A stretch of 25,276 bases of DNA from positions 1 through 25,276 of the forward strand of contig JAITVS010000012.1 of assembly GCA_031285685.1 (NCBI GenBank). Direction: 5' to 3'. The translations under genes were made by a program, and so were the position numbers. The DNA comes from Tannerella sp. Lineage in GTDB: Bacteria; Bacteroidota; Bacteroidia; Bacteroidales; Tannerellaceae. Each line of letters opens with the position of its first letter. Positions within the stretch are counted from its first letter, which is position 1. Below the pieces are notes generated by a model. It was not told where the DNA came from. It ran no database searches and saw only the letters and a program-made list of their open reading frames with translations. Below are positions 1,180 to 25,015 of this stretch, piece by piece.

Positions 1180-1187
1180 TATCTTTG
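1180..1187 (+). promoter_or_regulatory. Bacteroides-type -7 promoter box TATCTTTG (TAnnTTTG)
   Basis: Exact match to the TAnnTTTG consensus, 37 nt upstream of ATG 1224. It overlaps a 7-bp-stem palindrome at 1183-1200. Confidence 0.55.
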
Positions 1188-1223
1188 TTGCGGAACAAAG
1201 CATATTAATTGACCATAAAAAGC

Positions 1224-2846: not shown

Positions 2847-2889
2847 GACATGCAGGATAATAATAAATTCGCATTTTTTAATTGCACTT

Positions 2890-2903
2890 CATTTGATCAA
2901 ATG
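2890..2903. promoter_or_regulatory. perfect 14-bp palindrome CATTTGATCAAATG in the regulator-susC intergenic region (candidate operator)
   Basis: The sequence is read directly and is its own reverse complement. It lies 176 nt upstream of the susC-like start. Confidence 0.35.
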
Positions 2904-2956
2904 TAGTACAATTAAAAAAATCAAACTATTAACAATCAACAAAATAAATATTAACA

Positions 2957-3000
2957 TTGTAGATATAATTTATTCGATTTTCATCATTTTGTAGACATAA
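2957..3000 (+). repeat. two direct copies of TTGTAGAYATAA spaced 32 nt start to start
   Basis: ttgtagatataa at 2957-2968 and ttgtagacataa at 2989-3000 are 11/12 identical. Both lie upstream of the susC-like gene. Confidence 0.35.
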
Positions 3001-3078
3001 AATAGGATCTGAAAAGGTTGACAAAGGTTATTTGATTCTCTAATATTGCAGAAACTTTTTAACTAATTCAGAAATGTT

Positions 3079-6000: not shown

Positions 6001-6225
6001 ATGCGCCAGTTGCAGATAGGCTATGCTCTTCCGGTACCTATCCTGAAAAAAATACAGATAGAACGTTTACGCATCTACGCAAGTGCAGAAAATCTGTTTA
6101 CAATCACTTCTTATAAAGGAATCGACCCTGAATTTTCACGTACATCTGTGCTGAATGCCGGTATTGATACACATATCTACCCATTTACACGTTCCTATAT
6201 TTTCGGTTTACAACTTACATTCTAA
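3079..6225 (+). CDS. susC: SusC/RagA-family TonB-dependent outer membrane transporter
   Basis: 1048 aa. The N-terminus has a signal peptide followed by a carboxypeptidase-regulatory-like domain (VKGIVYDDLNEPAIGVNVIKKGTSEGTATNPDGEFEI). A plug region follows (VVIGYGTMKKSDLTGAISSV, ALQGKVSGVNI, PLYIIDGFP). The C-terminus ends in an aromatic residue (...GLQLTF) and a SusD gene follows directly. No STN/anti-sigma signalling domain is seen. Confidence 0.95.
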   Translation: MKITQIKNRLRTVSVIKITILSMCLFIFSVFTGIAQNTLVKGIVYDDLNEPAIGVNVIKKGTSEGTATNPDGEFEISLKQGDILVFSYIGFRAQEITYKGESFLTVRLSEDLESLDEIVVIGYGTMKKSDLTGAISSVNVDELASRATTNPAEALQGKVSGVNIRKSGGNAGAGVSVKIRGVKSFGDNEPLYIIDGFPGNINSVNPQDIASMEVLKDGAAAAIYGSTAANGVILITTKNGKKDELKIDFNAYVNSTHVAKKLELLDAKGYVQVHKQMYENYNGQFPNNAVELPGYITNPGNIDTNWQDEVFRSGLSQNYMVSLRGGSEKARYSISYNHADEKGVLLGNQFKQDNARMKLSVSKNIFDVDANLGFRATKNNQPQYSLKEAYMISPLVAVYDDTQEYGFGLATGNGLPSNRNVLADNYYRKAVTNSYFITANASVTANFTKWLNFRTSYSYQGDHQRYKYHTPPYVADVKSPTEYPYHSESSSYWQEQVIDNILTFNNTFGDHSLNVMAGSSITLQDYNWNSVAVEGKTIVYEVKDGQLVTSEKAAGFLDPNFSTINAGKGGTYTGEGSLYEYRRASFFGRLNYSYAGKYMIQATFREDGSSKFGKDSRWGFFPSVALGWRISEEGFFPQGGLISNLKFRASWGRLGNEQALGYYDFQALISTYNNLYGGSVQGSGSTPWPGSIAMGLANRDLQWETTDTKNIGFDYGLLKGKLSGSINYYYNQTEDMLITKKLAPSVGLLNPIMNVGKIRNTGVEIELNWNDKIGDFDYNVGINFTTTSNKVTELSDPNQALYGEGLKWGTEHFPTQTRVGKPIAGFYLYRTDGIFQNETEVAAHKNNAGELLQPNAKPGDIRFLDVNKDGSIDEDDKEYCGAAIPKVEANLSFGASYKGADISFLIGGGWGGKLYNANRYFYEGMSSGSNFLKTTLNAWTPQNTNTDVPRAVLQDMNGNARESDRFLEKGDYIRMRQLQIGYALPVPILKKIQIERLRIYASAENLFTITSYKGIDPEFSRTSVLNAGIDTHIYPFTRSYIFGLQLTF

Positions 6226-6253
6226 TCGTTTCACCATTCTAATATAAATAATC

Positions 6254-7765
6254 ATGAAGCATCTAAAATATACCGCCATTGTCCTATTATTAGCCGGAAC
6301 TATCGCTGGTTGCGAAGATTTCCTGACAGTACAATCGCCCGACGAACTGACTTCGGATTCATTCTGGAGAAATAAATCCGACGCCGAAGCCGGATTAGCA
6401 GCAGCTTACTCGAAACTGGAGGCATCGACTGATACATGGGAATTTCCCGAAGTCTATTTTCCGGTGGAAGCCTACCGCGAAGATATCATTAAACCGGGAT
6501 CGGATGCCTACAATTATCCGAACTGGATTGAACTGGCAAACTTCAACTACACTAATGGTAATTCCCAATTCACAGCCTACTGGCGTGATAATTACTACGG
6601 CATCAACTACAGTAACCAGGTCATAGAAAATCTTCCGAACATTCCGGCCGACATGATTTCCGAAGAAGACCGCGCCATGATACAGAACGAAGGCTATTTC
6701 CTGAGAGGATATTACCACATGAAACTGTTACTCAACTGGGAACAGATCATTATACGTGATAAATACATTACATCCACCAATGAATTGGACAAAGCGCCTG
6801 CAAGTCGTGCCGAAGCATGGGACTTTATCATCGAAAACTTCACCAAAGCGACTGCCCTTCCTGCCGGGCGAACCACCGAAACGTTAGGCCGTGCTACGAA
6901 AGGAGCTGCATATGCTTTTTTAGGCTGGGCACACCTGACAAGGGCGTATGAGGAACCCGACAAGAAAGAAACCCATCTGAATGCTGCGATCAGTGCGCTC
7001 AATCATGTTACCGGATATGAGTTAGTGAAAGATTTCAGCTCGCTTTTCGACGGAAGCAACAAAAATTCAAAAGAGGGGATATTCGAACTGCAATTGACGC
7101 TAAACACATCCAACGGCGCACGCTATCGCACACAATTACACCGTTTTATCGGCTGCTCGGAATTATGGGGCTGGGATGAAATCCTTCCGACGGAACAACT
7201 GATAAGCGCCTATAAAAAAGAAGGAAAAATCGCGACTACGGGGCGTTATGACAGCCGCTTCTATGAAACAATCTTTTTTAAAGATGAATACTTCAACGAC
7301 GAGGATGCCGCGCGTGTATACGGCAATACATATGATTACTGGTTCGAAGGTGCGGACAAGCCGACATTCAGAAAATATATGCCTGCCGATCTCAGCGGTT
7401 TGACAACCAGCTATTTTGCTCCGAATATCATACTGATGAGATACGTCAATGTGCTGTTGATGAAAGCGGAAGCCTTGAATGAATCAGGTCGTACAGCAGA
7501 AGCGATAACACTCATTAATCAAGTTCGCGAACGTGCCGACATGCCCGTCATGAATGGAACATCGCAACAGGAAGTACGCAGCCAGATCGAACATGAACGC
7601 ATGCTGGAGTTCCCATTGGAAAATATGCGTTTTTACGACCTGCGCCGTTGGGGAAAAACAAAAGAAGCCTTGCAGGCTGCAGGACGTACTAATTTCGATC
7701 CTGCTAAAAACAATTTTTATCCGATCCCCATACAGGAAGCCAATACAAATAACGCAATTAATTAA
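6254..7765 (+). CDS. susD: SusD/RagB-family nutrient-binding outer membrane lipoprotein
   Basis: 503 aa with a lipoprotein signal ending LLAGTIAGC. It sits 28 nt after the SusC gene. Typical SusD C-terminal segments are present (RYVNVLLMKAEALNE, ERMLEFPLENMRFYDLRRWG, PIPIQE). Confidence 0.93.
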   Translation: MKHLKYTAIVLLLAGTIAGCEDFLTVQSPDELTSDSFWRNKSDAEAGLAAAYSKLEASTDTWEFPEVYFPVEAYREDIIKPGSDAYNYPNWIELANFNYTNGNSQFTAYWRDNYYGINYSNQVIENLPNIPADMISEEDRAMIQNEGYFLRGYYHMKLLLNWEQIIIRDKYITSTNELDKAPASRAEAWDFIIENFTKATALPAGRTTETLGRATKGAAYAFLGWAHLTRAYEEPDKKETHLNAAISALNHVTGYELVKDFSSLFDGSNKNSKEGIFELQLTLNTSNGARYRTQLHRFIGCSELWGWDEILPTEQLISAYKKEGKIATTGRYDSRFYETIFFKDEYFNDEDAARVYGNTYDYWFEGADKPTFRKYMPADLSGLTTSYFAPNIILMRYVNVLLMKAEALNESGRTAEAITLINQVRERADMPVMNGTSQQEVRSQIEHERMLEFPLENMRFYDLRRWGKTKEALQAAGRTNFDPAKNNFYPIPIQEANTNNAIN

Positions 7766-7828
7766 AGAATATATAAACCCATTTTTTATCCAATAGAGTT
7801 TTTTCATTTTAATTATTAAACCGGGACA

Positions 7829-11018
<3,190 letters not shown>

Positions 11019-11031
11019 TATAAGATTTTAT

Positions 11032-12939
11032 ATGAAATATATTCTTTTCTTTTTAGTCATTCTCACAGGATGTTTTTCCTGTACGGAACAAAAACAAGTG
11101 CAATACAGCATTACAAGCAAATATGGCAACATTCTTGATATAAGCCATACTCCCGGAAATAAAACCCGTTGTTACGGATGGTTTACCGACAACGGCTCCT
11201 GGTACGGATTTACACCTCCTGAAAAAGAGAGATGGATCAATGGATTTTGCGGGCCGTTTCATCTGGATATGAACCGGCGGAAATGGATTTCGGAAAGTAT
11301 CGTCCATGTTTGCTTTGAAGAGGAAAGCAAAGCAACTGTTTACAAGCCCGATACAATCATTTATTATCCCGGAAAACTGTATATAAAGGCTACATCCGAA
11401 AACGGGACGATTGAACAGGAACTTATATTTATCAATGCGTCGACTGTTTTACTATCCGTAAAAAGCACTCACAAATCCCTCTTCCGTTTCTGGGGAGAAG
11501 CATTGGCAGACGATCACTCCTGCAACGCTGAAAAAAACTCATTTCTCATCACCTCGCCTGACGGCGAAGGAGTTGCAATCACATTTTCTCCGGAAACAGG
11601 ACTGCTGGCAAACGAAAACGGGTACGAGACATTATCTACGACATCCGGCAAAGCCGATATTGTCATATCTTTCTTTACGGATCCCGCTTCACAACGGTCT
11701 GTTATCCAAAAAGCCACATCCGTATTAGCTGAAGCCGAGTCATATAAACAACAGACATCCCGACGATGGGAGAACTATTTATCGAATGTAATCCGCAACG
11801 ATATGCCGGAAGAATTTAACCGCATCGCCGTAAAAGCAGTTGTTACACTTATTTCCAACTGGAAAACGTCACGTGGCGACCTTTTCCACGAAGGAGTCGT
11901 TCCCAGTCACGGAGTCGGTTATTTCATGGGATTCTGGGGATGGGATTCCTGGAAACATGCAGTTGCATTGGCTCATTTCGCACCTGACCTGGCTAAAAAC
12001 CAGGTGCGCTCCATGTTCGATTATCAAATGCCTGATGGAATGATTATCGACTGTATATACAGCGATGCGTCCGAAAATAATGCCAGAGACAGCAAGCCAC
12101 CATTAGCATCTTGGGCCGTAAACGAAATTTTTGAAACAACAAACGATACCCTTTTTGTCAAAGAGATGTATCCCAAGTTACTATCTTACTATCACTGGTG
12201 GTATAAAGACAGAGACCACAACAAAAACGGGATCTGTGAATTCGGCTCATGCGACGGAACGCTTGAAGCAGCCGCATGGGAAAGCGGTATGGATAATGCC
12301 ATTCGTTTCGATAACAGCAAAATGGTCAAAAACAGCGAAAATGCGTGGAGTTTTGACCAGGAGTCCGTCGACCTGAATTATTTTCTGGCATTTGAATGCA
12401 GGTTACTGAAAAAATTAGCTGCCGTTGCAGGCCAGGTTTTCGATGAGCCGGATCGCTCGGATCAGATAAATGATTACTTTTTCGTAGCAGAACCGGGCTT
12501 TTTCTTCGATAAACGTTTAGACGGCACTTTTGTTAAAGAAGAAGGAACAGAAGCATGCATCCCTTTATGGACACAGATCGCAACAACAGAACAGGCCGCA
12601 TGCTGCGTCAAACTATTTACCGACACCAATAAGTTCGCTACCTATATACCCTTCCCGACAATCGCCGCCGACAATCCGAAATTCATGCCTGCAGGTTACT
12701 GGAGGGGGCCGATATGGTTAGACCAGGTCTACTTTGGTGTTTCCGGAATACGCAAATACGGATACCGCTCCGAAGCTGACAAATTCACGGAACAGGTATT
12801 CTCCCGGCTGGAAGGATTAACGGCAGACAAACCGATTCATGAAAATTACGATACCCACAGCGGAAAGACATTAAAAGCGCCTCATTTTAGCTGGAGTGCG
12901 GCACATTTATTAATGCTGTATTGGGAATATGGAAAATAA
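11032..12939 (+). CDS. GH63-like (YgjK / glucosidase-I-like) six-hairpin glycoside hydrolase lipoprotein
   Basis: ATG 11032 gives the lipoprotein signal MKYILFFLVILTGC. Motifs GFWGWDSWKHA, WESGMDNAIRFD, YWRGPIWLDQVYF and HENYDTHSG fall in the order I recall for GH63-type (alpha/alpha)6 enzymes. The longer track ORF from 10951 overlaps the GH2 gene. Confidence 0.72.
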   Translation: MKYILFFLVILTGCFSCTEQKQVQYSITSKYGNILDISHTPGNKTRCYGWFTDNGSWYGFTPPEKERWINGFCGPFHLDMNRRKWISESIVHVCFEEESKATVYKPDTIIYYPGKLYIKATSENGTIEQELIFINASTVLLSVKSTHKSLFRFWGEALADDHSCNAEKNSFLITSPDGEGVAITFSPETGLLANENGYETLSTTSGKADIVISFFTDPASQRSVIQKATSVLAEAESYKQQTSRRWENYLSNVIRNDMPEEFNRIAVKAVVTLISNWKTSRGDLFHEGVVPSHGVGYFMGFWGWDSWKHAVALAHFAPDLAKNQVRSMFDYQMPDGMIIDCIYSDASENNARDSKPPLASWAVNEIFETTNDTLFVKEMYPKLLSYYHWWYKDRDHNKNGICEFGSCDGTLEAAAWESGMDNAIRFDNSKMVKNSENAWSFDQESVDLNYFLAFECRLLKKLAAVAGQVFDEPDRSDQINDYFFVAEPGFFFDKRLDGTFVKEEGTEACIPLWTQIATTEQAACCVKLFTDTNKFATYIPFPTIAADNPKFMPAGYWRGPIWLDQVYFGVSGIRKYGYRSEADKFTEQVFSRLEGLTADKPIHENYDTHSGKTLKAPHFSWSAAHLLMLYWEYGK

Positions 12940-12979
12940 AATACGAGAGATTGTTTAAGGTAAAATAAAAAAGAACAAA

Positions 12980-12987
12980 TAACTTTG
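12980..12987 (+). promoter_or_regulatory. -7 promoter box TAACTTTG
   Basis: Exact TAnnTTTG match, 43 nt upstream of ATG 13031. Confidence 0.5.
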
Positions 12988-13030
12988 GGGCAAATAAACA
13001 AAATATTACACACCGACAAAATATCATAAT

Positions 13031-15493: not shown

Positions 15494-15530
15494 TCCTTTT
15501 AATACAATATACCTCTTTTATTAGAGTGTG

Positions 15531-15538
15531 CAAAGGTA
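15531..15538 (-). promoter_or_regulatory. -7 promoter box TACCTTTG for the membrane-protein/thioredoxin/MarR operon
   Basis: The reverse complement of caaaggta is an exact TAnnTTTG match, 38 nt upstream of ATG 15493. Confidence 0.55.
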
Positions 15539-15668
15539 CAAAAAATTCCTTTTCAACCCTCTAAAAAACAAGTTTATACCCGAAGAAGAACCGTGAATGG
15601 GTAACGATATAGAAATGAGCGAACTGCTTCGCTCTGCTTTCATTTACACCATCTCAAATAACTCAATG

Positions 15669-15676
15669 CAAAGGTA
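15669..15676 (-). promoter_or_regulatory. second upstream TACCTTTG box (possible distal promoter or small transcript)
   Basis: This is the same 8-mer as at 15531-15538. A 7-bp hairpin gagcgaa-ctgc-ttcgctc (15617-15634) lies between the two boxes. Confidence 0.3.
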
Positions 15677-15689
15677 ACGCTTCTTTGTG

Positions 15690-15741
15690 AAAAAGAAAAA
15701 TTCATCCCAAAATTCTTGTAATCGTGAGAATTTGGGGATGA
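15690..15741 (-). terminator. Rho-independent-type terminator on the minus strand at the island/core junction
   Basis: Arms 15702-15716 and 15727-15741 pair at 14/15 positions around a 10-nt loop. On the minus strand the stem is followed by aatttttcttttt. Confidence 0.5.
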
Positions 15742-15749
15742 TATAAAAC

Positions 15750-15779
15750 TTCGGAAGTTATTCGGAAATCATTTCCGAA
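15750..15779. promoter_or_regulatory. three TTCGGAA/TTCCGAA half-sites, including the perfect palindrome ttcggaaat-c-atttccgaa
   Basis: TTCGGAA occurs at 15750-15756 and 15761-15767, and the inverted TTCCGAA at 15773-15779. The 9+1+9 palindrome at 15761-15779 was verified by hand. Confidence 0.35.
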
Positions 15780-15864
15780 TTGGGAATACATAAACGGATG
15801 ATTTTGTTTCTCCTTTCAACTTGAAATAAATCAAGGCATTTGTTTGTCTTTCATTCAAGACTAA

Positions 15865-16185
15865 GTGTTTCATCACAAAATAATAACTTTTCATATGGCA
15901 ATGATTTTAACTGCTTTACGGATTGTGAAAACAGAGCACATTCAAAGCCCAATGATATGCAACGATACTGATTTTCATACAGCGTTGGAATTGATGAAAA
16001 TCCTAATCCAACACGCCGCCCGAATTTACGAAGCTTTGCCCGCTGAAATCGAAAAGCCCAAATAACCCAACCTAAAACAACAGTTTTTAGAAGCCTTGCC
16101 ACCCGAATTTTCCCGAAAAGATTACTTGCAAACTGCCCAAAGCGGATTAATAAACCATTGGGTGCATGATAAATATAGAAAATGA
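15865..16185 (+). pseudogene. decayed C-terminal fragment of a DUF3987-type (mobile-element primase/helicase-associated) gene
   Basis: Translation gives ...ITFHMAMILTALRIVKTEHIQSPMICNDTDFHTALELMKILIQHAARIYEALPAEIEKPK, then a stop (TAA 16063-16065), then PNLKQQFLEALPPEFSRKDYLQTAQSGLINHWVHDKYRK. This follows the C-terminal pattern I recall for Bacteroides DUF3987 proteins. Here it lacks the whole N-terminal body, is interrupted by a stop, and seems to be missing the segment between LQTAQS and GLI. Confidence 0.55.
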
Positions 16186-16537
16186 TAAATGTCTATAAAA
16201 TAAAAATCGACACTATCTCAAAAGTTGTGGGGCGATTTGACAGGACAAGAGTAGGCTGTATTTGCAGGTAATCACCAAAAATACTGCTGATGCGTTAAAT
16301 TTTAATATATTCTTGTAAGTTATTTATGGCAAGGCTATTATTTGCTATTTCTTATTTTTCGATTTGAAATTAAAATAAATTAGTAAATCAAATTATTACG
16401 ATTTTAGCACTCTTGTTACTTTTGTAAATATTTGACAATAAGTAAAATATAAAACCAAGAAGCGTCAGAAAATTCAATTTGTCAAATTCTTGAAAATTAA
16501 CATATCACTACTACACCAAAAATAAAAAATACTTTCT

Positions 16538-17560
16538 TCACTCCAATAGCAATTTCAAATATCTACTAACTATTTGCGTATCTCCTACATGCCCGAGTGC
16601 TGTAAGTACAATGTTTTTTTGTGGAGAAACTAATAAATATTGTCCCCCATTACCTTGAATAAAATAATCTCCATTTTTACATATCCATAAAAATAACCCA
16701 TAAGCTGAACGGGGGAATGCTTCTACTGTATTATACTCTTTCACAATCATGTGTTGAGGTGTTGTCATTTTTCTTATCCACTCCGGTGGGATAACTTGCA
16801 AACCATTCCAAATCCCTTGCTGAATCAGCAATTTTCCTATCTTATGAAGGTCGTTGTTGAATAAATAAAGTCCTGTAGCTCCAGCACAATAATTTCCATA
16901 ATCTTTCCAAAAGAAATTTGTTATTTCTAATTTAGAAAAAATTTTATCATTAGCAAAGTGAGATAAATTTTGTCCTGTTATTTCTTGAAAAATGACAGAT
17001 AGTAGGAAGGCAGAAGCATTTGAATAAAGAAAATGTTCGCCGGGTTCATATAATAAAGGCTCGTTACATAAAAAATGAAGAAAAGTCGCAGGAGATATGT
17101 CTTTTATATCTGCTTGAAACAATAACTGTTTATCATAACCGGTTGTATGTGTAAATAGATGTCTTAATGTCACCTTTTGTAGTTTGCTTATATTATCTTT
17201 ATTTTCTATAGTAACTTTATCTTTAATGATAGACCAAATTTTAGTATCAAGATTGATTTGTTCCTCTTTGTATTTTGCTTGCATATCGCAAATTAATATG
17301 CCATAACACAATGCAACGATTAGTTTACTTATTGAGCGAATTTCGTGTAGCTCTTTTTCTTCTATAAAATAATACTGATATTTATTATTTATATCTGAAA
17401 CTATAATACTATCCATAGTAAGAGAATTATTGCGAATATCTTTTACTGCTTGCATGTCGGCAATAATATTATCAAACGTCTCCTTGTACATGTCTGTATT
17501 TTGGATTTTTATGCCAATTATATTCTTTCTTTTCTCCTTCGTTCCAAACTCTATCTTCAT
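16538..17560 (-). CDS. beta-lactamase-fold serine hydrolase (class C / family VIII esterase / D-aminopeptidase-like), operon gene 8
   Basis: SxxK motif SISK (S76, K79 of the long ORF), YxN motif YSN (FLYSNASAF), and a late GNGGQYLLVSPQKNIVL segment. The longest ORF overlaps the upstream gene by 89 nt. Alternative ATGs lie at 17491 (20-nt overlap) and 17455 (16-nt gap). Confidence 0.78.
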   Translation of the reverse strand: MKIEFGTKEKRKNIIGIKIQNTDMYKETFDNIIADMQAVKDIRNNSLTMDSIIVSDINNKYQYYFIEEKELHEIRSISKLIVALCYGILICDMQAKYKEEQINLDTKIWSIIKDKVTIENKDNISKLQKVTLRHLFTHTTGYDKQLLFQADIKDISPATFLHFLCNEPLLYEPGEHFLYSNASAFLLSVIFQEITGQNLSHFANDKIFSKLEITNFFWKDYGNYCAGATGLYLFNNDLHKIGKLLIQQGIWNGLQVIPPEWIRKMTTPQHMIVKEYNTVEAFPRSAYGLFLWICKNGDYFIQGNGGQYLLVSPQKNIVLTALGHVGDTQIVSRYLKLLLE

Positions 17561-18749
17561 AGTCGCACCATTCTGGAGGGAAAAAACCTGATGGGAGTTT
17601 GTTGATAAATTGCTGATTGAAATCTTTTATTTGAGTTAACAAATTATCCCTATCAACATCATTATTATAATTACAGATACAGTTGATAATAGGAGAAACA
17701 ATATATTCGCCTAGCTTAAAGTCAAACATAAAACTGTGCGTTCTGTGATATGAATCATATTTCTCGCCACAATTCTTTATTTTATGTGTATTATATTTAT
17801 AACCGCTCGCTATATCATTATATTGAATGTTAAAATGTTGCATCAAAGGAATGTCGCGTCCAGCAGATTCAAGGTCACGACATACAATCCGTTTTATTTG
17901 GAAATCCTTATTAATTGTTAGCAACATATTTTGTGCATGTGCTTCAAGTTCAATACCGCCAAAAATCAAAGCATCAAAATATGTGTGGAATAGTGGTTTT
18001 AGAATATTATCTATTAAAAAAACTGCAAGTGGTAAAGTTTGCTTCTTAAATAACTGAATAATTAGTGGCTCATCTTGCTCTATACAAGGAGTTCTATCTG
18101 TGCCGGGTATATATTCTTTGCTGAATAGTGAAAAAAAAGGAATTAAAGATTCGCACTCATCAATATATGGATATGGAGAACTTTCTCTAAATAATACCCC
18201 TAATTCATACATAACATTACCTAACGGTAAATAGGCTATTTTTCCGTAATCCTCTCGAAAAATACTAAATCTTTGATTGACTTTATTTTCGTCTATTATT
18301 CGTTTTAAAATATTTGTAACTTCACAACTTGATTGAATTTTTTCCTTTGTCATATGTCTTGGTATTCTTCCAAGAATTTCAGTATAGGCAAGTTTTATGA
18401 AAGTCTTATTTGTTAAGTTAAAGACAGTACGCCCACTTGCTGTGGGAACAACTATAATATCTAAAGGTTTTTCACTTATATTTGGGGAAATAAATTCATT
18501 TTCTACCATATCAGGATGAACAACAATACAATCTTTTGGAATAGACCAACAAGGCATATTACCAAACTCCTCTACAGTCACTTTGTCATTGAATCTGAAT
18601 ATTTTAGCTGCAAAGGATATAGTTCCCGACAATGGTCTTGTATTCTCGGATGTCGTATTGTTAATATTACTTCTTGAACCATCATTAACATATCGCTCCG
18701 CCTTAATGAAAGATTCTATTGGGTTACTTATAAATTCTTCTATTTTCAT
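17472..18749 (-). CDS. IucA/IucC-like (NRPS-independent-siderophore-synthetase-like) ATP-dependent ligase, short form, operon gene 7
   Basis: 425 aa. The ordered motifs are VVHPDM, VVPTASGRTV, IKLAYTEILGRIPR, FSIFRED and GIELEAHAQNMLLTINKDFQIKRIVCRDLES. I recall these matching the PTSSxRT, K...R and EAHxQN...RD ATP/Mg-binding motifs of AcsD/IucA-type enzymes. The start overlaps the upstream stop as ATGA. Confidence 0.55.
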   Translation of the reverse strand: MKIEEFISNPIESFIKAERYVNDGSRSNINNTTSENTRPLSGTISFAAKIFRFNDKVTVEEFGNMPCWSIPKDCIVVHPDMVENEFISPNISEKPLDIIVVPTASGRTVFNLTNKTFIKLAYTEILGRIPRHMTKEKIQSSCEVTNILKRIIDENKVNQRFSIFREDYGKIAYLPLGNVMYELGVLFRESSPYPYIDECESLIPFFSLFSKEYIPGTDRTPCIEQDEPLIIQLFKKQTLPLAVFLIDNILKPLFHTYFDALIFGGIELEAHAQNMLLTINKDFQIKRIVCRDLESAGRDIPLMQHFNIQYNDIASGYKYNTHKIKNCGEKYDSYHRTHSFMFDFKLGEYIVSPIINCICNYNNDVDRDNLLTQIKDFNQQFINKLPSGFFPPEWCDYEDRVWNEGEKKEYNWHKNPKYRHVQGDV

Positions 18750-19567
18750 TTTTGAATCTTTTCTTCTAATATCATTTTCTCTATCTTGACAAGGCTGTCA
18801 AAACATAGTTTTAAATATTCTTGTTCGGTATATTTGTTTTTTTGTTCTTCCGAACAACGGACTTCTAATGTCAATTCAATATCGGAATTGTATTTAGAAA
18901 TATTTCTGACAAGATTTTTCCAATCAATATTTCCATCAAGAGGAAGTAAGTGTTTATCGGCAATTCCGTCATTATCATTTAAGTGTACACATGTTAATTT
19001 ATCGCCAAAAATATTCCATGGAAAAGTTTCTACATTTTTTGTAAAGGCATTTGCATGTCCACTGTCAAAACAAAATTTCAGTTTGTCACTTTCTAATTTT
19101 TTAAAAACAAATTCAAGATAATCAAGTCTGCGAAGATTTTCCAAACAAAGAATAATTCCATATTTCTCACATACATCTAAAATTCTGGAAATACGTTTTA
19201 TTCCCGATTCACACATTAATGGGGGAGCTGTGCCTCCAGTAATATGTGCGACAACAGTTTTAATCCCATAATTATGTGCAAATGAAATTTCATTTATGAG
19301 TTGTTTTTCATATTTATCAGCTTCTGCATCTTCTGTCCAAAGAGCGTTAACATATTGAGAATCTATCAGTTGCCCATCAATAAATTTTTTATAAGAAAGA
19401 TGTAATGTTTCTATGTTTAACTTTGATTTATTTATCAAATCAATATATTCGAGGGGATGGTATTGCGAGTATATAAAAACACCGTCAAATCCAGCATCTT
19501 CTATGAGGCTGATTCTTTCCGCCGGTTCTGCCGACATTTTATAATTAAAACCAATGTTCTTTTTCAT
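18746..19567 (-). CDS. xylose-isomerase-like TIM-barrel protein (sugar-phosphate isomerase/epimerase / AP-endonuclease-2 superfamily), operon gene 6
   Basis: 273 aa. The metal-ligand motif series is LCLENL, FDSGHANAF, VHLNDNDGIADKHLLPLDGNIDW and TLEV. Confidence 0.78.
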   Translation of the reverse strand: MKKNIGFNYKMSAEPAERISLIEDAGFDGVFIYSQYHPLEYIDLINKSKLNIETLHLSYKKFIDGQLIDSQYVNALWTEDAEADKYEKQLINEISFAHNYGIKTVVAHITGGTAPPLMCESGIKRISRILDVCEKYGIILCLENLRRLDYLEFVFKKLESDKLKFCFDSGHANAFTKNVETFPWNIFGDKLTCVHLNDNDGIADKHLLPLDGNIDWKNLVRNISKYNSDIELTLEVRCSEEQKNKYTEQEYLKLCFDSLVKIEKMILEEKIQK

Positions 19568-19574
19568 TTGTTTT

Positions 19575-20279
19575 TTAATTTAGGATGTGTAACAAATCTG
19601 AAAACAAATTAATCACTTTTACTGTTTTTTGTAAACTTGATGGTAAATGTTTTTTTCGAAAATTAAACAGGCAACTGTCAATTCCTATATTCAAAGCTCC
19701 TTGAATATCTGTTTCTAAATTATCTCCAACGATTAAGATATTTTCTTTATCAATACTGTAACAAGAAATTATCTTTTCGATAAATTGTGAATCAGGTTTT
19801 TGTACTCCTAAATCCTCCGAAGAATAAAAACCATCTATGTAAGTTCTTATTCTTGAATTTTCAATTTTATTCTTTCTTGGATAATTCGTTCCATTGGTAG
19901 CTATAATTTTAATTATACTTTTATCAATAGCCTTCAATGTTTTATAAACACTATTGATAAGGACTCCTTTTGTTGAAAATTCAAGTTGCTTTGCTGAGAA
20001 ATCTGAAGGATTAATATCATTTTGCTTTTGCAAAGAACTTAAAAAGACCGATGCTCGCTCAACTCTAAATTTGGTAAAATCATCTTGATTAACTAATATT
20101 TGATGACTTTTGTGTACATTTTTGTTAATCGTTTTATATAAGTGATATATGTTTTCAGTATATGATAATCCAAAATATTCGCAAGCCATTTTTAATGCTT
20201 TACGCTCCGTTTTCTCATAATCAAACAATGTATCGTCCAAATCGAAAATAATGAGTTTATATTTTGTTTTATCAACCAT
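19575..20279 (-). CDS. HAD-superfamily phosphatase, YjjG-like (nucleotidase-like) subfamily IA, operon gene 5
   Basis: 234 aa. HAD motif I is IIFDLDDTLFD, motif II is IIATNGT, motif III is a Lys in QKPDSQF, and motif IV is VGDNLETDIQGALNIGIDS. Confidence 0.82.
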   Translation of the reverse strand: MVDKTKYKLIIFDLDDTLFDYEKTERKALKMACEYFGLSYTENIYHLYKTINKNVHKSHQILVNQDDFTKFRVERASVFLSSLQKQNDINPSDFSAKQLEFSTKGVLINSVYKTLKAIDKSIIKIIATNGTNYPRKNKIENSRIRTYIDGFYSSEDLGVQKPDSQFIEKIISCYSIDKENILIVGDNLETDIQGALNIGIDSCLFNFRKKHLPSSLQKTVKVINLFSDLLHILN

Positions 20280-20284
20280 AACAA

Positions 20285-20974
20285 TTAAAATACATTTAAG
20301 TCATCTCGCTCAACAATTAACGAATAGTCTTCTTGACTGGAAAGTTCCAAATCGAATTTTTCTCTTTCCGGTAAAATAAAGGCTTCAAACTGTTCATTTC
20401 TTTCATCACATTTTCTTTTAACTTCCTCACGAGATAAGTTTTGTTCTCCATCACGAGCCCTACTTATTCTCCTACTTACCTCTACGTCTCTATTGCACAT
20501 TAAGAAAATTCCAAATGTTTGGGGGAGTTTTTCAAGAAATGCACTTCCGACACCTTCAATGATAGTTATCGCAACTTGTGCGTTGACCTCTACAAATTCA
20601 TTTCTTTTCTTTGGCTTAAAATAACAGTTTTTTCCCTGAGTTAAAGAATAAACTATAACTTCCGGAGCAGAGAGATAATACGATTCTTTAAATGAGGTTG
20701 TATATTCGCTTTCACGAGTTTTCCCATTTATGTCAGTCCAAACTTTTTTCCCACTTTTTCGCATTTTTGTATCAAGGACAAATTCGTCCATATCAATACA
20801 ATTAACATTCAAGCCGAGAGCCTTAACTTCTGTCACAAGTTCTTCACTTAATGTTGTTTTCCCAGCACCACCATTGCCAGACAAAAAGATAAATCTATAG
20901 TCTTTATCCAAGCAAAAATCAATTACCTTCTTGACAATTTGTTTACTTACATACGATTTTTTTACTTCTTTCAT
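20285..20974 (-). CDS. P-loop kinase, uridine-kinase/phosphoribulokinase-like, operon gene 4
   Basis: 229 aa. Walker A is LSGNGGAGKTT and the Walker-B-like segment is ITIIEGVG. The lid-like VSRRISRARDGEQ and later FEAFILPEREKFDLEL parallel the Udk/PRK layout. Confidence 0.7.
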   Translation of the reverse strand: MKEVKKSYVSKQIVKKVIDFCLDKDYRFIFLSGNGGAGKTTLSEELVTEVKALGLNVNCIDMDEFVLDTKMRKSGKKVWTDINGKTRESEYTTSFKESYYLSAPEVIVYSLTQGKNCYFKPKKRNEFVEVNAQVAITIIEGVGSAFLEKLPQTFGIFLMCNRDVEVSRRISRARDGEQNLSREEVKRKCDERNEQFEAFILPEREKFDLELSSQEDYSLIVERDDLNVF

Positions 20975-21004
20975 TTGACGAAATTATTTAAATTGTTATA
21001 ATTA

Positions 21005-21586
21005 CTATTTATTGAGAATATATTTGTCAAACCATTCCACATGTTTGAATATATGCAAATCATTATTTGATAAATATGCGACTATATTGGGACTATCACT
21101 ATTATCAATGAAATATACAGTTTCAGACATTTTAGTAATCTGTCCGATATTATCCATTGTCATAAAATATCTTGTTCGCACCTTTTCTTCAGAAATGGTG
21201 TCAGCATTTTCTGTATCGTATCGCTTTTTTGTTCGTTCTATGTTAATATCAACCGAACTTGTTCCAATAAAAAACGATACAATGTTATACTCATATTGTT
21301 CTTTTATCAATGCTATTCTATCAATTTTGTGTTGAGCTGTTGGACATAATTCATAAATAAAATCATTTCCTTTTTTACAAACTCTATACATTTTATATTC
21401 AACCAATTTATCAGCTCTTCGATACCCCTCTGAGAGTTTATTGCCTTTAGTATCAAAAAAAAATCTTTTATAAACGTCTGAACCAATGTATTCTATCTCT
21501 TGATAAGGTTCATAAGAAAAAATACGGCTTCCTACAACTGTCTTTCCTGAACCAATACTCCCAACAAGAAGATAAATTGTTTTCAT
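21005..21586 (-). CDS. small P-loop kinase (zeta-toxin / AAA_33-like), operon gene 3
   Basis: 193 aa. Walker A VGSIGSGKT sits at residues 8-16, and an Asp follows in IGSDVY. The size and layout are those of a compact nucleoside/small-molecule kinase. An ATGA overlap couples it to the preceding 60-aa ORF. Confidence 0.65.
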   Translation of the reverse strand: MKTIYLLVGSIGSGKTVVGSRIFSYEPYQEIEYIGSDVYKRFFFDTKGNKLSEGYRRADKLVEYKMYRVCKKGNDFIYELCPTAQHKIDRIALIKEQYEYNIVSFFIGTSSVDINIERTKKRYDTENADTISEEKVRTRYFMTMDNIGQITKMSETVYFIDNSDSPNIVAYLSNNDLHIFKHVEWFDKYILNK

Positions 21587-21765
21587 AAGACTACCTCCTT
21601 CTTGATTTGTTCAATTTGATTAAAATCGTCATCATCCCAGTATGTCTTTTTATTCCATTCAGAAAGTGCTGAGTCAAAACGTAACGACTCTTTATTTAAT
21701 TGCTTAATGATGTCAATAAATGAATCTGTATAAGTTGTATTTTCTATGATATGTATTTCTTTCAT
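21583..21765 (-). CDS. 60-aa acidic hypothetical protein, operon gene 2
   Basis: The ORF is bracketed by ATGA overlaps with both neighbours, which argues it is translated. It contains an acidic patch YWDDDDFNQIEQ and no recognisable domain. Confidence 0.5.
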   Translation of the reverse strand: MKEIHIIENTTYTDSFIDIIKQLNKESLRFDSALSEWNKKTYWDDDDFNQIEQIKKEVVL

Positions 21766-23300
21766 TTCCTTTTTAATTCTCGTTTTTCTTTTTTTAAATA
21801 ATCTTTAGCTAACTTAACAGATTTTTCAAATTCCATATCGGGTTGTCTATCTATCTTTTTAATACTCGATACCACATCCGAAATAGAACTTTCACAATCC
21901 TTGATTTTTACCAATTTTCTCTCCTTACTCAAATTAGTATTATCTTTTACAAGAAATTTATGTTGTAAAGGGTAAGCAGTAATTAATAAGGCAGAATTTC
22001 GGAAACACAAGTCTGTCCGTGTAGTACACTTTTTTATAGTTTCATTCAATTTATCTATCACGCTGTTTATAGTTTCTGCATCTACTTCTTCAAGTTGTAT
22101 TTCATTCATCAAACTATCATACCGTATCCCCTCTTTACTATTTAAGCCAATTTCTGTGCCAACATACGTATTTGCATAGGCAATCGCTTCATTTACTATT
22201 CTATGCTTTTCTTCGATATTACTATTTATTCGTATTTTTTTAATATTATTCCTCGCAAAAGCATAATAATACTCCTTTACAATTTTACTTCTTGCTTCTT
22301 CAGACAAAGAAGCATATATCTTAATACTTTGACGAAGACGATAAACTTGTTCTGTTTGTGAAAATCCAAGAGTAGATTCTTCTACATTATTTATATATTT
22401 CCAAATATCTAAGTCAGATAAAGTATCAATACTTGCTGTTGTAGCCTCAAACATATTGGTAATATTATTTTTAATGCAATTCATTTTGTCATTATCATTA
22501 CTGTGAGGACACGATTGTGTTCTGCATTTTTTCTCATTGCGCTCAATACAAACACCTTTCATATGGATAATTGTACCGCGAGAAAGAATTAATTTAATCT
22601 TATTTTCATTCAATATGGCATCATTCATTTGAGCAATATCCCTATCTAAAAAAATACCAGCTAAATGCCTGTAGCCTTTGAGTGTCATTTTTAAAAATTC
22701 TTGACTTTCATTTTGTTTGCTGTTCTCGAATAATCTGATAGATTCTATTTCTGCCTCACGAGTTCCTTTTCTTATGGTTTCGACAGCCTCGTTCCAGTCT
22801 TCTTTGTCTGCTTGGTATAAAGACCATCCTAAATCATCAAGATTAAGCATTACGCTAACGTATTGTTTTGACCTATGCTTTCCACCAATGACGATATTAT
22901 TCAATTCCCTATCACATTTTTTTATTGCTTCCTGTACTTTTTTGCCAATTCTAACCCTATTCGCATTTTGCTTGGTATGAAATAACATTTCACTTATTTG
23001 TAGTCCTAACATGATTGCATTTTCATAACGTCTGTTTTTTATTTCCTTATTTAATATTGCAATAAGACTCATTCTATGTTCATAGACAATCAATATTATA
23101 CCAAATATCAAAAGAGGAACTATTAGGATAATAATGGTTATAGCAGTTTGAAAAAATTTATCACTCATAACGTAACCTATGGCAAGACCAATGATAACTG
23201 ACACTATTGATTCTATAAAGAATTGTCCCCAAGATAATATTTTAGGATTAGAAAGTAGTTCTTCAAAATTATTTTTAATTTTTCGCTTCAACATATTCAT
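21762..23300 (-). CDS. membrane-anchored all-helical protein of unknown function, operon gene 1
   Basis: 512 aa. Two N-terminal TM helices span about aa 24-45 and 52-73. A long Lys/Glu-rich helical region follows. A single Cys/His cluster reads C251-x7-C259-x4-C264-x-H266-x8-C275. No domain was recognised. Confidence 0.7.
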   Translation of the reverse strand: MNMLKRKIKNNFEELLSNPKILSWGQFFIESIVSVIIGLAIGYVMSDKFFQTAITIIILIVPLLIFGIILIVYEHRMSLIAILNKEIKNRRYENAIMLGLQISEMLFHTKQNANRVRIGKKVQEAIKKCDRELNNIVIGGKHRSKQYVSVMLNLDDLGWSLYQADKEDWNEAVETIRKGTREAEIESIRLFENSKQNESQEFLKMTLKGYRHLAGIFLDRDIAQMNDAILNENKIKLILSRGTIIHMKGVCIERNEKKCRTQSCPHSNDNDKMNCIKNNITNMFEATTASIDTLSDLDIWKYINNVEESTLGFSQTEQVYRLRQSIKIYASLSEEARSKIVKEYYYAFARNNIKKIRINSNIEEKHRIVNEAIAYANTYVGTEIGLNSKEGIRYDSLMNEIQLEEVDAETINSVIDKLNETIKKCTTRTDLCFRNSALLITAYPLQHKFLVKDNTNLSKERKLVKIKDCESSISDVVSSIKKIDRQPDMEFEKSVKLAKDYLKKEKRELKRK

Positions 23301-23351: not shown

Positions 23352-24311
23352 CTAAACCCGTTCAACAATCTGAATAAATACTTTCGCTACCTCAGTTTCA
23401 TCAGGAATAGAAACAAACACCAACTGCGATAATTCCAACAAGTAAACATCTTTCAAAAAGTTCCACAATGCAGGAAAATCGGTAACAAGAGGCGATTGTA
23501 TAATTTCCTTTTCGCCCCAATTTTCAGGCGTATCAAAGGCTTGTCTATCATGTTCTAAAAGTTCGGCAAAATCCTGTTTAAAATCAGGCGTTTGAATATA
23601 CGCCGCACATTCTTCATCTTTTGCCAAGTAATACAAGTCGTAAAAATGCCTGATTTTAGCGGCAAGAGCGCGGCGCGGATTTTCGGTAAACGAAAAACGA
23701 AACAACGACACCAATTTTTCAATCATCGTTTGCCGTTTATCTAACACATTCAGCACAAACGGCTGTAATCCGTATTCTTCAATGGCAGCAGCCTGATTGT
23801 TTACTGTGAGATATTCCGTAATAAACGAGGTGATTTCCAGTTTTACATACGGATATGGATTCGCAAATGAATTAATTTCAACAATCATCCTGTTTGGAAT
23901 AATACTGTCCACTTTTCCCAACAAAGTAGGATATTCAAAAATGGATTTGCGAAACATTGAGCCTTTACTCGTTACACCATTTTCTACAATTTCAGTTAGT
24001 TCTGTGGTTATTTCCTTTTCTATATTTCGAATTTTTGTTTTCACGGCGTTGCCGCTCAAATTTTCGTTAATAATAGCAATATCAATATCTTCCGAGAACC
24101 GATTGATAAGGCGATAACCTTTTGAAAGCGAAGTACCTCCTTTGAACACAGCATTTTCCACCTCATTACAGCAAGACAAGCGGTTAAGAGCCAACGTAAT
24201 CCAATAATCTTTTTCCACAAAAGCCGGAATAATATTGAGATGCTTTGCCGTGAATGTGATAAGCGCAGAAAAATCCGCGGTATTCGTATGTAAATTCATC
24301 GTATGTACCAT
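23352..24311 (-). CDS. abiEii: AbiEii/AbiGii-family nucleotidyltransferase toxin
   Basis: 319 aa. FKGGTSLSKGYRLINRFSEDIDIAI matches the KGGTxL...RxSxDID nucleotidyltransferase core. The internal Met at 24299 gives a classic ATGA overlap with the AbiEi stop and may be the true start. Confidence 0.82.
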   Translation of the reverse strand: MVHTMNLHTNTADFSALITFTAKHLNIIPAFVEKDYWITLALNRLSCCNEVENAVFKGGTSLSKGYRLINRFSEDIDIAIINENLSGNAVKTKIRNIEKEITTELTEIVENGVTSKGSMFRKSIFEYPTLLGKVDSIIPNRMIVEINSFANPYPYVKLEITSFITEYLTVNNQAAAIEEYGLQPFVLNVLDKRQTMIEKLVSLFRFSFTENPRRALAAKIRHFYDLYYLAKDEECAAYIQTPDFKQDFAELLEHDRQAFDTPENWGEKEIIQSPLVTDFPALWNFLKDVYLLELSQLVFVSIPDETEVAKVFIQIVERV

Positions 24312-25015
24312 TTTTTTGGATTAGACAAAATTTCACTTGAAATATCTAATTTGTAAGACGATTGGTGATTCAACGCCTTGTAAAGAACTGTCGTATCTTC
24401 ATTTTCGTTGTTCGTTTCCAGAATTGCTCCCAAAAGAGCAATAGTCGAAGGCGAATATTTTATTGCCAATCGTTTAGCCGTATTAATTTGCTCCTGCGTT
24501 AGTTGCTTAAATAACACCAATAGACGACGGCAAATCTCATCAGGCATCGCATCGGGAATACTTTTGAAAAAACGCAAACAATCCAACAACTGCAATACAG
24601 GGACATTTGTCTTTGTAATCGTATTTTGTTGAATAATAAAACTAATCCGATAATTGCCGCGAGTAATCGGTTTCTTTTCCTTACTGACAGCAATTTGCAG
24701 CATTGCAGGCACTTGCGTTGTCAATCCCAATTTATTAAAAATAGAATAACCTGTTAGATAACCAATAATTTTACCGTTTTTTTCAAGTAAATCTTTAACA
24801 GTTTGGAAAGTATCGGGCGGAAGTTCACCGAATTTGCTCACTTGCGGTTTGTAAAAACGACCTTTACACAAACGCCTGATTTGCCCTGCCGCTACCACAT
24901 TATTCAAAATCTTGGTAACAGTATTCTGCTTATCCAACGGCACAGGAAAATCCGCTGCCGTAAAAACAAATCCGTCAGAGAATTTAGCAATCGTTTTTTT
25001 TATTGTATCAGTCAT
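24296..25015 (-). CDS. abiEi: AbiEi-like / DUF6088-family antitoxin-transcriptional regulator
   Basis: 239 aa with an N-terminal winged-helix-like segment (VFTAADFPVPLDKQNTVTKILNNVVAAGQIRRLCKGRFYKP). It sits immediately upstream of and overlapping the AbiEii gene. Confidence 0.75.
   Translation of the reverse strand: MTDTIKKTIAKFSDGFVFTAADFPVPLDKQNTVTKILNNVVAAGQIRRLCKGRFYKPQVSKFGELPPDTFQTVKDLLEKNGKIIGYLTGYSIFNKLGLTTQVPAMLQIAVSKEKKPITRGNYRISFIIQQNTITKTNVPVLQLLDCLRFFKSIPDAMPDEICRRLLVLFKQLTQEQINTAKRLAIKYSPSTIALLGAILETNNENEDTTVLYKALNHQSSYKLDISSEILSNPKKWYIR

Follow-up and report, generated by a model that had tools for sequence, protein, structure and literature searches.

A horizontally mobile operon of Tannerella sp. 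that joins a compact, predicted NIS-fold ligase to a membrane protein: a possible new conflict module

Synthetases of the nonribosomal peptide synthetase-independent siderophore (NIS) type, such as IucA/IucC, AsbB, AcsD, DesD and SbnC, are proteins of ~550-620 aa that are composed of an N-terminal domain, the IucA_IucC domain and an FhuF-like C-terminal domain. In the petrobactin asb operon, the NIS synthetases AsbA and AsbB and a TIM barrel protein (AsbF, PF01261) serve one pathway. Here, we analyzed a stretch of 25,276 nucleotides from Tannerella sp. (contig JAITVS010000012.1 of assembly GCA_031285685.1, hereafter the window), in which eight minus-strand genes, g1 to g8, form a cassette of 6.8 kb. 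Its ligase, g7, is predicted to have the same overall fold as the NIS synthetases and keeps their H-x-Q-N and R-D motifs of the ATP/Mg site, but has only 425 aa. Unlike in NIS clusters, members of the g7 family are paired with a membrane protein, which either has two transmembrane helices and TPR-like repeats (2TM-TPR) or is of another type, and with amide hydrolases, phosphatases or NUDIX proteins. Also unlike NIS clusters, the cassette is found on integrative and conjugative elements (ICEs) and in defence islands, without genes for siderophore precursors, export or uptake. We tentatively interpret it as a new conflict or defence module (anti-phage or anti-mobile-element) that acts on an aminosugar or sugar-phosphate metabolite, a view that we hold with slightly more doubt than confidence. 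The genes are as follows.

g1, 21762-23300, minus strand, 512 aa: putative 2TM + TPR-like membrane anchor or scaffold
g2, 21583-21765, minus strand, 60 aa: acidic, detached C-terminal module of g1
g3, 21005-21586, minus strand, 193 aa: compact P-loop kinase, weakly zeta-toxin/AAA_33-like
g4, 20285-20974, minus strand, 229 aa: PRK/uridine-kinase-family P-loop kinase
g5, 19575-20279, minus strand, 234 aa: capped HAD-IA phosphatase, YjjG-like
g6, 18746-19567, minus strand, 273 aa: metal-dependent TIM barrel of the xylose-isomerase fold
g7, 17472-18749, minus strand, 425 aa: predicted compact ATP-dependent ligase of the NIS-synthetase fold, the anchor gene of the whole family
g8, 16538-17491 (longest open reading frame to 17560, 340 aa), minus strand: beta-lactamase-fold serine hydrolase or acyltransferase, cytoplasmic

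An earlier interpretation, made from the letters of the window and here called the sequence-only reading, had proposed eight minus-strand open reading frames (ORFs) between 23300 and 16538, three ATGA overlaps and gaps of 30, 5 and 7 nt. All eight ORFs are present and the distances were measured as proposed: from g1 to g8, the junctions are -4, -4, +30, +5, +7, -4 and -20 or -89 nt, with ATGA overlaps at g1/g2, g2/g3 and g6/g7. At the last junction, g7 and g8 overlap by 89 nt if the longest g8 ORF is used and by 20 nt if translation begins at M24 (position 17491). The latter start, which gives a protein of 317 aa, is likely because alignments of g8 homologs begin at residue 24-26 and an independent gene call on an identical contig also gave 317 aa. 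Thus, the overlap claimed for this junction was found, whereas the extent of g8 had to be corrected, probably from 340 to 317 aa. The overlap of ligase and hydrolase genes recurs in homologous loci. A single expression unit, also proposed earlier, agrees with the tight or overlapping junctions and with the same junction style in homologs. So does an AT-rich island with the base composition: the GC content of the cassette (16538-23300) is 30.4%, compared with 42.5% for positions 1-13000.

To collect g7 relatives, one genome per species and JGI metagenomes were scanned with a profile and exact look-ups were added, which yielded 121 loci. The architecture of the window occurs in 22 of these, always in the order (G1)(g2)-zeta-like kinase-PRK-HAD-TIM barrel-ligase-hydrolase, where G1 stands for the g1 family. 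These window-type loci, Tannerella included, are from Bacteroidota, Clostridia and Coriobacteriia and show 25-57% identity. Eight are in named genomes (Tannerella, Saprospiraceae, Carboxylicivirga, four Clostridia and one Coriobacteriia chromosome) and the others are on untyped metagenome contigs. G1 was found in 13 of the 17 window-type loci that have enough upstream DNA. A search for the gene order in other genomes had been set beforehand as the test of co-conservation, and the occurrence of the same order in 22 loci means that the genes are not neighbors by chance. All eight make up one conserved, horizontally mobile operon.

Several loci depart from this arrangement by fusion or replacement. 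The TIM barrel and the ligase are fused into a protein of ~700 aa in several Clostridia (P0048, P0049, P0053, P0054, P0061, L007, L008 and L042), and one homolog (P0082) is a ligase-beta-lactamase fusion. In L041, a YdjC deacetylase takes the place of the beta-lactamase-fold protein; in L006, a membrane protein of another family (F2) and a histidine phosphatase take the place of G1. These fusions and substitutions link the TIM barrel, the ligase and the hydrolase. Decayed or rearranged copies were also observed (L044, 6833-12194; L049, 1639-2582; L050, 1-9467), with G1 cut to 128 aa and the beta-lactamase gene in two pieces, and L050 carries an inverted partial duplicate of the ligase and hydrolase and of the kinase.

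The g7 protein matched Pfam IucA_IucC with an E-value of 6e-11 (42.8 bits, gathering score 25), over model positions 128-238 of 239 only, and is also weakly FhuF-like. When a profile of 23 sequences was compared with the PDB, it reached SbnC at no better than E 0.017, with the H-x-Q-N and R-D motifs aligned. An AlphaFold2 (AF2) model built on the same 23-sequence alignment had a pLDDT of 92.5, and its Foldseek matches were all NIS synthetases: AsbB (best), IucA, AcsD, DesD, SbnC, IucC and NcdF, with E-values of 1e-16 to 1e-12, TM-scores (TMq) of 0.6-0.68 and identities of 12-18%. The protein falls short of canonical NIS enzymes by ~150 aa. PTASGRT, K119, R128/R131, EAHAQN and RDxES are invariant in homologs. 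Judged by the model, g7 has a compact, strongly divergent version of the NIS fold and represents a new clade. Because of this fold and the conserved nucleotide-site motifs, it probably condenses a carboxylate with an amine or alcohol in an AMP-forming reaction. The sequence-only reading had named a short IucA/IucC-like adenylating ligase, and both the Pfam match and the AF2/Foldseek comparison support this assignment.

An automated IucA_IucC rule would label the cassette as an NIS siderophore cluster. The score of g7, which is above the gathering score, and its fold agree with such a label, as does the co-occurrence of a TIM barrel and NIS enzymes in the asb operon. We nevertheless find it barely credible that siderophore synthesis is the function. 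Only the C-terminal half of the IucA_IucC model is matched, and the shortness of g7 and the modest E-value of its PDB profile match likewise speak against it. Neither the cassette nor the homologous loci contain an amine monooxygenase/hydroxylase, N-acyltransferase or decarboxylase, and no exporter, TonB receptor or ABC importer was found in the cassette or its window-type homologs. The sole TonB-dependent gene of the window is a SusC gene of a polysaccharide utilization locus (PUL), which is located >10 kb away on the other strand. As for petrobactin, AsbB is the best fold match of g7, but g6 is not AsbF-like in sequence (no similarity to AsbF detectable at E<=0.01) and the cassette is without aryl-carrier, spermidine or iron-uptake functions.

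The first protein of the operon, g1, had been described as a helical protein with two transmembrane helices, and this is what was seen: two N-terminal helices (about residues 19-45 and 49-74) are followed by a TPR-like all-alpha solenoid with the signature motifs DDLGWS (155-160) and GYRHL (209-213). Judging from its basic N-terminus, g1 probably exposes the solenoid to the cytoplasm. The AF2 model of g1 (pLDDT 78) is all-alpha, and its fold matches were limited to generic TPR and designed-repeat proteins. Neither g1 nor g2 matched a family in Pfam, NCBIfam or PADLOC. An exhaustive HMMER search among 1.84 billion representatives found 69 clusters of the g1 family, which has a ~600-aa class and a 370-510-aa class with the first ~220 residues in common. 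It is homologous to F3, the 2TM-TPR partner of more distant ligase loci (hhalign 99.1%, E 4e-19), with which it shares both DDLGWS and GYRHL.

The small protein g2 is acidic (pI 4.6) and corresponds in alignments to the C-terminal ~60 aa of the ~600-aa G1 proteins. In Clostridia and Coriobacteriia, its module forms part of the G1 protein, whereas the three closest relatives (L002, a named Bacteroidota genome, L045 and L047) encode it as a separate small ORF. A hidden Markov model (HMM) of the module recovered G1 tails left out of its training (L042, 8.5e-10; L041, 7e-8). Because of this recovery and of the alignment to G1 tails, g1 and g2 are one protein split in two, and g2 is a real gene. 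Therefore, the 60-aa acidic protein noticed previously is indeed real and acidic, but it is not an independent novelty. Whether free or as a G1 tail, the module is always located immediately before the kinase. In L006, whose zeta-like kinase is longer, an N-terminal fusion of the g2 module to this kinase was also considered and found unsupported (g2 HMM, E 2.4).

The domain calls that had been made from motifs for g3 to g8 were all reproduced by HMM profile searches. The g3 kinase matched Pfam Zeta_toxin (4.3e-6, 26.7 bits, cut-off 22.3), covering 17-189 of 199 positions, and also AAA_33; against the PDB its profile gave P-loop-level matches only (zeta 1gvn, E 0.011). G9..S13-G14-K15, D37, R118 and R122 are invariant in 13 homologs. 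The g4 protein matched Pfam PRK (8e-10), and its family profile was closer to phosphoribulokinase (6hzk, 3.9e-8) than to uridine kinase (3e-3); GNGGxGK, D63 and R168/R169/R172 are invariant. For g5, the matches were HAD_2 (1.8e-18), NCBIfam YjjG (2.3e-35, below the cut-off) and ribulose-1,5-bisphosphate 5-phosphatase (6e-17), and D13, D15, T128, K161, G185 and D191 are kept in at least 90% of 12 sequences. The g6 protein matched AP_endonuc_2 (5.5e-23) and, weakly, CbiR (8e-9) and fructoselysine 3-epimerase (1e-6). The best PDB match of its family profile was the uncharacterised MJ1311 (3wqo, 5e-13), EndoIV (3aal) was reached at E 5e-3, and its invariant residues are of the metal-ligand type (H108, E143, D168, H171, H195 and E235). 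Finally, g8 matched Beta-lactamase (1.4e-23) and has conserved SxxK, YSN and GxxGQ motifs; the best curated family, 3-succinylated cholic acid synthase (3.4e-28), was far under its cut-off. Because the catalytic signatures of g3 to g8 are invariant across homologs, the six proteins appear to be working enzymes rather than relics.

The kinase and its small acidic neighbor recall the Zeta/PezT-epsilon/PezA systems, in which epsilon neutralises the zeta toxin; characterised zeta toxins phosphorylate UDP-N-acetylglucosamine (UDP-GlcNAc). Shared features are the Zeta_toxin match of g3, which passes the Pfam threshold, the position of g2 just upstream, with its stop overlapping the g3 start, and a sugar-nucleotide theme. 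As the abortive-infection pair AbiE also adjoins the cassette, one could think of a toxin-antitoxin-like unit in which g3 is a toxin neutralised by g2 or the G1 tail, possibly extending AbiE, with the other enzymes as passengers. Such a unit is, in our opinion, very unlikely. Compared with zeta toxins, g3 is ~90 aa shorter, shows marginal profile similarity, at P-loop level, to the solved structures and is part of a seven-enzyme operon. Unlike epsilon/PezA, g2 forms the C-terminal end of a large membrane protein, has no family match and belongs to a unit of seven or eight genes, not two. Moreover, of the 121 ligase loci, 99 lack the kinase, while the ligase and a membrane protein are retained. 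The other enzymes are not passengers, since the seven or eight genes are conserved together, and no other cassette has AbiE beside it.

A kinase, a phosphatase, an endonuclease-IV-fold enzyme and an adenylating ligase could also be arranged into a PNKP-like pathway for healing and sealing nucleic-acid ends, and AAA_33, HAD, AP_endonuc_2 and AMP-forming ligase activities formally mirror T4 Pnkp/Rnl logic. We regard this as hardly conceivable, however: g5 is a capped HAD-IA protein, typical of small-molecule substrates, g7 has the predicted NIS fold and not that of covalent nucleotidyltransferase ligases, g6 is nearer to MJ1311 and sugar enzymes than to Nfo, and the beta-lactamase, YdjC and S66 partners of the ligase have no place in nucleic-acid repair.

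Beyond the window-type loci, distant g7 relatives show 25-38% identity, and 91 of the 121 ligase loci fall into five recurrent architectures. In addition to that of the window, these are:

type B, ligase + F2 + beta-lactamase: 34 loci, including Vibrio parahaemolyticus, beside a phage integrase, and a Thermoplasmata metagenome-assembled genome (MAG)
type C, NUDIX-ligase-histidine phosphatase-F3, with or without YdjC: 18 loci
type D, F3 + ligase only: 9 loci
type E, (histidine phosphatase)-ligase-S66 LD-carboxypeptidase-like peptidase-multi-TM protein-F28: 8 loci

A membrane protein (G1/F3, F2 or F27) is encoded in the classed loci that have enough flanking sequence, except L035, L044, L050 and L052. 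Very often the ligase is also accompanied by an amide/ester hydrolase of one of three unrelated folds (beta-lactamase, YdjC or S66), and by partners that cut or remove phosphate, namely a HAD or histidine phosphatase and a TIM barrel or NUDIX protein. Sequence comparison thus shows a module core that consists of the ligase recurrently encoded beside a membrane-anchored protein, which in Tannerella is g1 with its detached tail g2. Regardless of its role, the analysis defines a compact NIS-ligase clade of >200 members, the uncharacterised membrane partner families G1/F3 and F2, and five conserved architectures on mobile elements of gut and environmental bacteria, in which the fusions hint at a reaction order.

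The F2 proteins have 750-900 aa, C-terminal transmembrane helices and invariant Cys, His, Asp, Asn and Trp residues, and no match to them was found in Pfam, PADLOC or PDB profiles. They are always located between or beside the ligase and the beta-lactamase-fold gene in a compact three-gene system, e.g., L039 (11241-13520, Vibrio parahaemolyticus) and L032 (the Thermoplasmata MAG). Two unusual proteins were noted in other loci: F3 (2TM-TPR) is fused to a histidine phosphatase in L113 (7997-9976), and L094 (3529-6177) codes for a ~880-aa protein with a ligase domain. In a further ligase clade (L022 and L105-L107), the neighboring genes code for CDP-alcohol phosphatidyltransferase, UDP-sugar dehydrogenase, epimerase, radical-SAM, glycosyltransferase and YdjC proteins. 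The order in L106 (5843-14911) is CDP-alcohol phosphatidyltransferase, UDP-sugar dehydrogenase, NAD epimerase, radical SAM/SPASM, ligase, GT1, YdjC and a MetRS-like gene. This order recalls the glycosyltransferase/deacetylase/aminoacyl-tRNA-synthetase-like ligase logic of mycothiol synthesis, although the MetRS may be a mere housekeeping gene.

With regard to the substrate, the enzyme set suggests a sugar, aminosugar or nucleotide-sugar rather than a nucleoside, and UDP-GlcNAc-related compounds are the most plausible class. This is because g4 is nearest to phosphoribulokinase and g5 matches a sugar-bisphosphate phosphatase model; g6 matches ketose 3-epimerase and CbiR phosphodiesterase models; YdjC enzymes, which are sugar de-N-acetylases, can substitute for g8, and type C loci join NUDIX, histidine phosphatase and YdjC with the ligase; and one ligase clade lies among UDP-sugar genes, while zeta toxins act on UDP-GlcNAc. 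The type C set may be read as splitting a nucleotide-sugar, dephosphorylating, deacetylating and re-acylating it. The TIM barrel and HAD protein of the window type could then be functional analogues of NUDIX and histidine phosphatase. Against this interpretation, nucleoside substrates are hinted at by the YjjG match of g5 and the uridine-kinase match of g4, and the zeta-toxin assignment of g3 is weak. In addition, the type B relative in the Thermoplasmata MAG belongs to an organism without murein, which argues against peptidoglycan or murein precursors as a universal target.

The following mechanism is possible. The enzymes g3, g4, g5 and g6 would process a small phosphorylated metabolite of the sugar, aminosugar or nucleotide-sugar type. 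The ligase g7 would activate a carboxylate by adenylation and couple it to an amine or hydroxyl group of the processed intermediate, whereas g8 would cleave an amide or ester and thereby either unmask the nucleophile or reverse or detoxify the product. The g1 and g2 proteins might hold or regulate these enzymes at the inner face of the membrane, or serve as sensor or effector. In a conflict, the cassette could convert or deplete an essential envelope or sugar precursor, or make a toxic or signalling conjugate, and it would be carried as cargo of ICEs and defence islands.

The same enzymes might instead form a mobile, non-immune pathway for a specialised metabolite or envelope glycoconjugate, in which an aminosugar or sugar-phosphate conjugate is made or remodelled and g1/g2 bring the final steps to the membrane. 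The product could, for example, be a thiol-like compound of low molecular weight, a cell-surface sugar in modified form or a small molecule used in antagonism. We consider such a pathway possible, if rather doubtful. It would agree with the nucleotide-sugar neighborhood of the L022 and L105-L107 clade, with the catalytically intact appearance of all enzymes and with the biosynthetic role of NIS enzymes in every characterised case. Use of a deacetylase and an ATP-dependent ligase on an aminosugar is also the logic of mycothiol and bacillithiol synthesis, in which MshB/BshB are LmbE-type enzymes and MshC is a paralogue of CysRS. The cassette shares with it an amide hydrolase (g8, or YdjC in L041 and type C), an ATP-dependent ligase and phosphatases; however, this is an analogy of logic only, as the families are unrelated, the cassette contains no glycosyltransferase, and two kinases and a membrane TPR protein are added. 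The lack of an exporter, glycosyltransferase and carrier, the existence of minimal two-gene forms (ligase + 2TM-TPR), the repeated defence-island and ICE contexts, the decaying copies and the sporadic distribution across phyla all argue against a metabolite pathway. In the window, the genomic surroundings of the cassette are:

TPR-LuxR regulator, plus strand, within a PUL (1209-12939)
3079-6225, plus strand, SusC-like TonB receptor
6254-7765, plus strand, SusD
7878-11018, plus strand, GH2 beta-galactosidase
10951-12939, plus strand, GH63/MGH1-like hydrolase
15865-16065, plus strand, C-terminal remnant of DUF3987 (Pfam 2.3e-4, last 43 model positions)
23352-24311, minus strand, AbiEii (PADLOC 1.6e-88)
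24296-25015, minus strand, AbiEi (PADLOC 4.9e-48)

The left flank has host-like GC and consists of the PUL, located at 1209-12939 on the plus strand, followed by LysO, rubredoxin, MarR and thioredoxin genes, all unrelated to the cassette. The left edge of the AT-rich island is marked by the DUF3987 remnant (a primase-helicase-type mobile-element protein) within non-coding positions 15500-16537, and an intact Prim-Pol/DUF3987 gene is located upstream of the homologous cassette in L041. Window-type cassettes adjoin serine recombinases, type IV secretion system coupling proteins, Mob/Prim-Pol genes and SocA/Panacea antitoxins, that is, ICE contexts. The sequence-only reading had placed the genes on a mobile island, and the foreign GC, the border remnant and these contexts of the homologs are consistent with it. 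A scan of the window for a tRNA as integration site found no tRNA, and the contig stops ~140 nt past the window, so the right border of the island lies out of reach.

The proximity of a PUL raises the question of an operon that salvages, catabolises or remodels an exogenous nutrient (an aminosugar, Amadori, cobamide-like or nucleotide-sugar-derived compound), carried as a niche-adaptation trait on a mobile element. The best curated matches of g6, cobamide-remodelling CbiR and fructoselysine 3-epimerase, would fit, and the mix of kinase, phosphatase and hydrolase is typical of salvage. However, no transporter or regulator is present in or beside any copy and an ATP-consuming ligase is unusual for catabolism. 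The GC content of the PUL is host-like, unrelated genes lie between it and the cassette, and a search with Rfam at gathering scores (window and seven homologous loci) detected no riboswitch or other RNA. We therefore view a salvage function as quite unlikely.

On the other side, the cassette lies directly downstream of the AbiE pair, as proposed earlier, and PADLOC models recognised both AbiEii and AbiEi. AbiE shares the strand and the AT-rich island with the cassette, but it is a separate system of different GC (37-38%). No match to AbiEi/AbiEii was detected by tblastn in 35 related loci, and no AbiE was present in nine Pfam-annotated contexts. AbiE is a neighbor and not part of the conserved cassette; an extended AbiE operon was rejected, since AbiE is beside none of the other 21 cassettes. 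Among the 17 window-type loci with at least ~2 kb beyond the cassette, at least nine have a defence-type gene within ~10 kb, each time a different one:

window: AbiE
L005: GmrSD
L004: NB-ARC STAND and methylase fragment
L006: NPHP3-type STAND
L007: PDC-S37/Hhe-like 1206-aa protein and PDC-S31
L008: Druantia DruB
L041: TIR-UvrD
L042: SIR2
L043: Fic and MT-A70

A DruD match (2.5e-91) was also found in the pooled flank set, in which it was not assigned to a locus. Foreign GC, rarity, spread across phyla at similar identity, decaying copies and varied defence and ICE contexts are the reasons for which we propose a conflict role; this combination has been used before as a signature to predict defence systems. 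We hold the proposal at its tentative level because the defence neighborhood comes without a background control or genome-wide statistic. Other points also weigh against it. The argument is one of guilt by association, and some of the flanking defence calls are generic domains (STAND, MTase, Fic). No recognisable infection sensor and no classical effector (nuclease, NADase or pore) was found among the cassette proteins. The ligase family is also found inside a seemingly ordinary nucleotide-sugar biosynthetic cluster (L022, L105-L107), and 30 of the 121 loci are without modelled partners beyond an occasional HAD, PRK-like or beta-lactamase protein, many of them on short contigs. The sequence-only reading had offered both a small-molecule pathway and a defence or toxin module. 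The two are compatible with each other and neither is proven, although the evidence favors a conflict role.

Such a role would resemble type II Thoeris, CBASS, Pycsar and prokaryotic viperins in concept, in that an enzyme makes or alters a small molecule and a membrane protein is the constant partner. The hydrolases could switch the molecule off, and the location in defence islands also fits. Unlike these systems, the cassette contains no TIR, CD-NTase, cyclase or radical-SAM protein and has no PADLOC match. Speculatively, and we think this more specific version unlikely, the NIS-fold ligase might define an immune class in which it makes an amide or ester conjugate of a sugar or nucleotide-sugar on demand. 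The DDLGWS/GYRHL 2TM-TPR membrane protein would sense or transduce the conjugate, and hydrolases (beta-lactamase fold, YdjC, S66), phosphatases and NUDIX proteins would be off-switches or provide self-protection, with the five architectures being variants across bacteria and one archaeal MAG. As far as our comparison with literature and databases goes, an NIS-fold ligase as immune synthase is unprecedented. If the cassette is a conflict system, NIS-type ligases, for which all solved or curated matches found in this analysis come from siderophore synthesis, would enter prokaryotic immunity, and sugar or aminosugar metabolites would become a new defence currency beside nucleotides and NAD.

In PADLOC-DB v2.0 (2023), g1, g2, g5, g7 and g8 had no match, and g3, g4 and g6 had only P-loop or weak matches (E>=6e-4); the partner families F2, F3, His_Phos, NUDIX, S66, YdjC, F27 and F28 were also without match. 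No published description of such a system was found in the literature. The absence of a meaningful PADLOC match, of siderophore accessory or transport genes and of a describing paper is in line with the earlier statement that the operon fits no recognised architecture. We also considered a phage-borne auxiliary or anti-defence operon and rejected it, as PHROGs, phage records and IMG/VR gave no cassette-type match: PHROG had no match for g1, g2, g3, g6 and g7, 50,697 phage records contained no cassette-type match, and no relative was found among pattern-matched candidates from 2.9 million IMG/VR contigs. Weak g7 matches (26.7% identity over 53% of g7) were observed in two Staphylococcus phage records, OR850016.1 and OR844989.1, which are unannotated and labelled S. 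aureus, one of them being 282 kb long. They may be host siderophore genes (sbn/sfa-type) in misassembled or mislabelled records.

A search of plasmids for cassette relatives turned up only a different short IucA/IucC gene on the Methylocystis sp. MJC1 plasmid NZ_CP107559.1 (L040, 197390-199825), with 27% identity over two thirds of g7. Its partners there are an MFS transporter and a DUF1259 protein, in a neighborhood of metal-resistance genes, and it possibly represents a separate minimal NIS-like system. With regard to transcription signals in the window, a scan for sigma-70 promoters was at chance (52 sites, 48 expected) and is not informative for a Bacteroidota promoter type. Terminator-like sites were about twice as frequent as in shuffled sequence (9 and 4.1, respectively), none of them at the cassette ends. 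A perfect 7-bp GC-rich hairpin (GAGCGAA-CTGC-TTCGCTC, 15617-15634), terminator-like on both strands, is located between the host genes and the island remnant.

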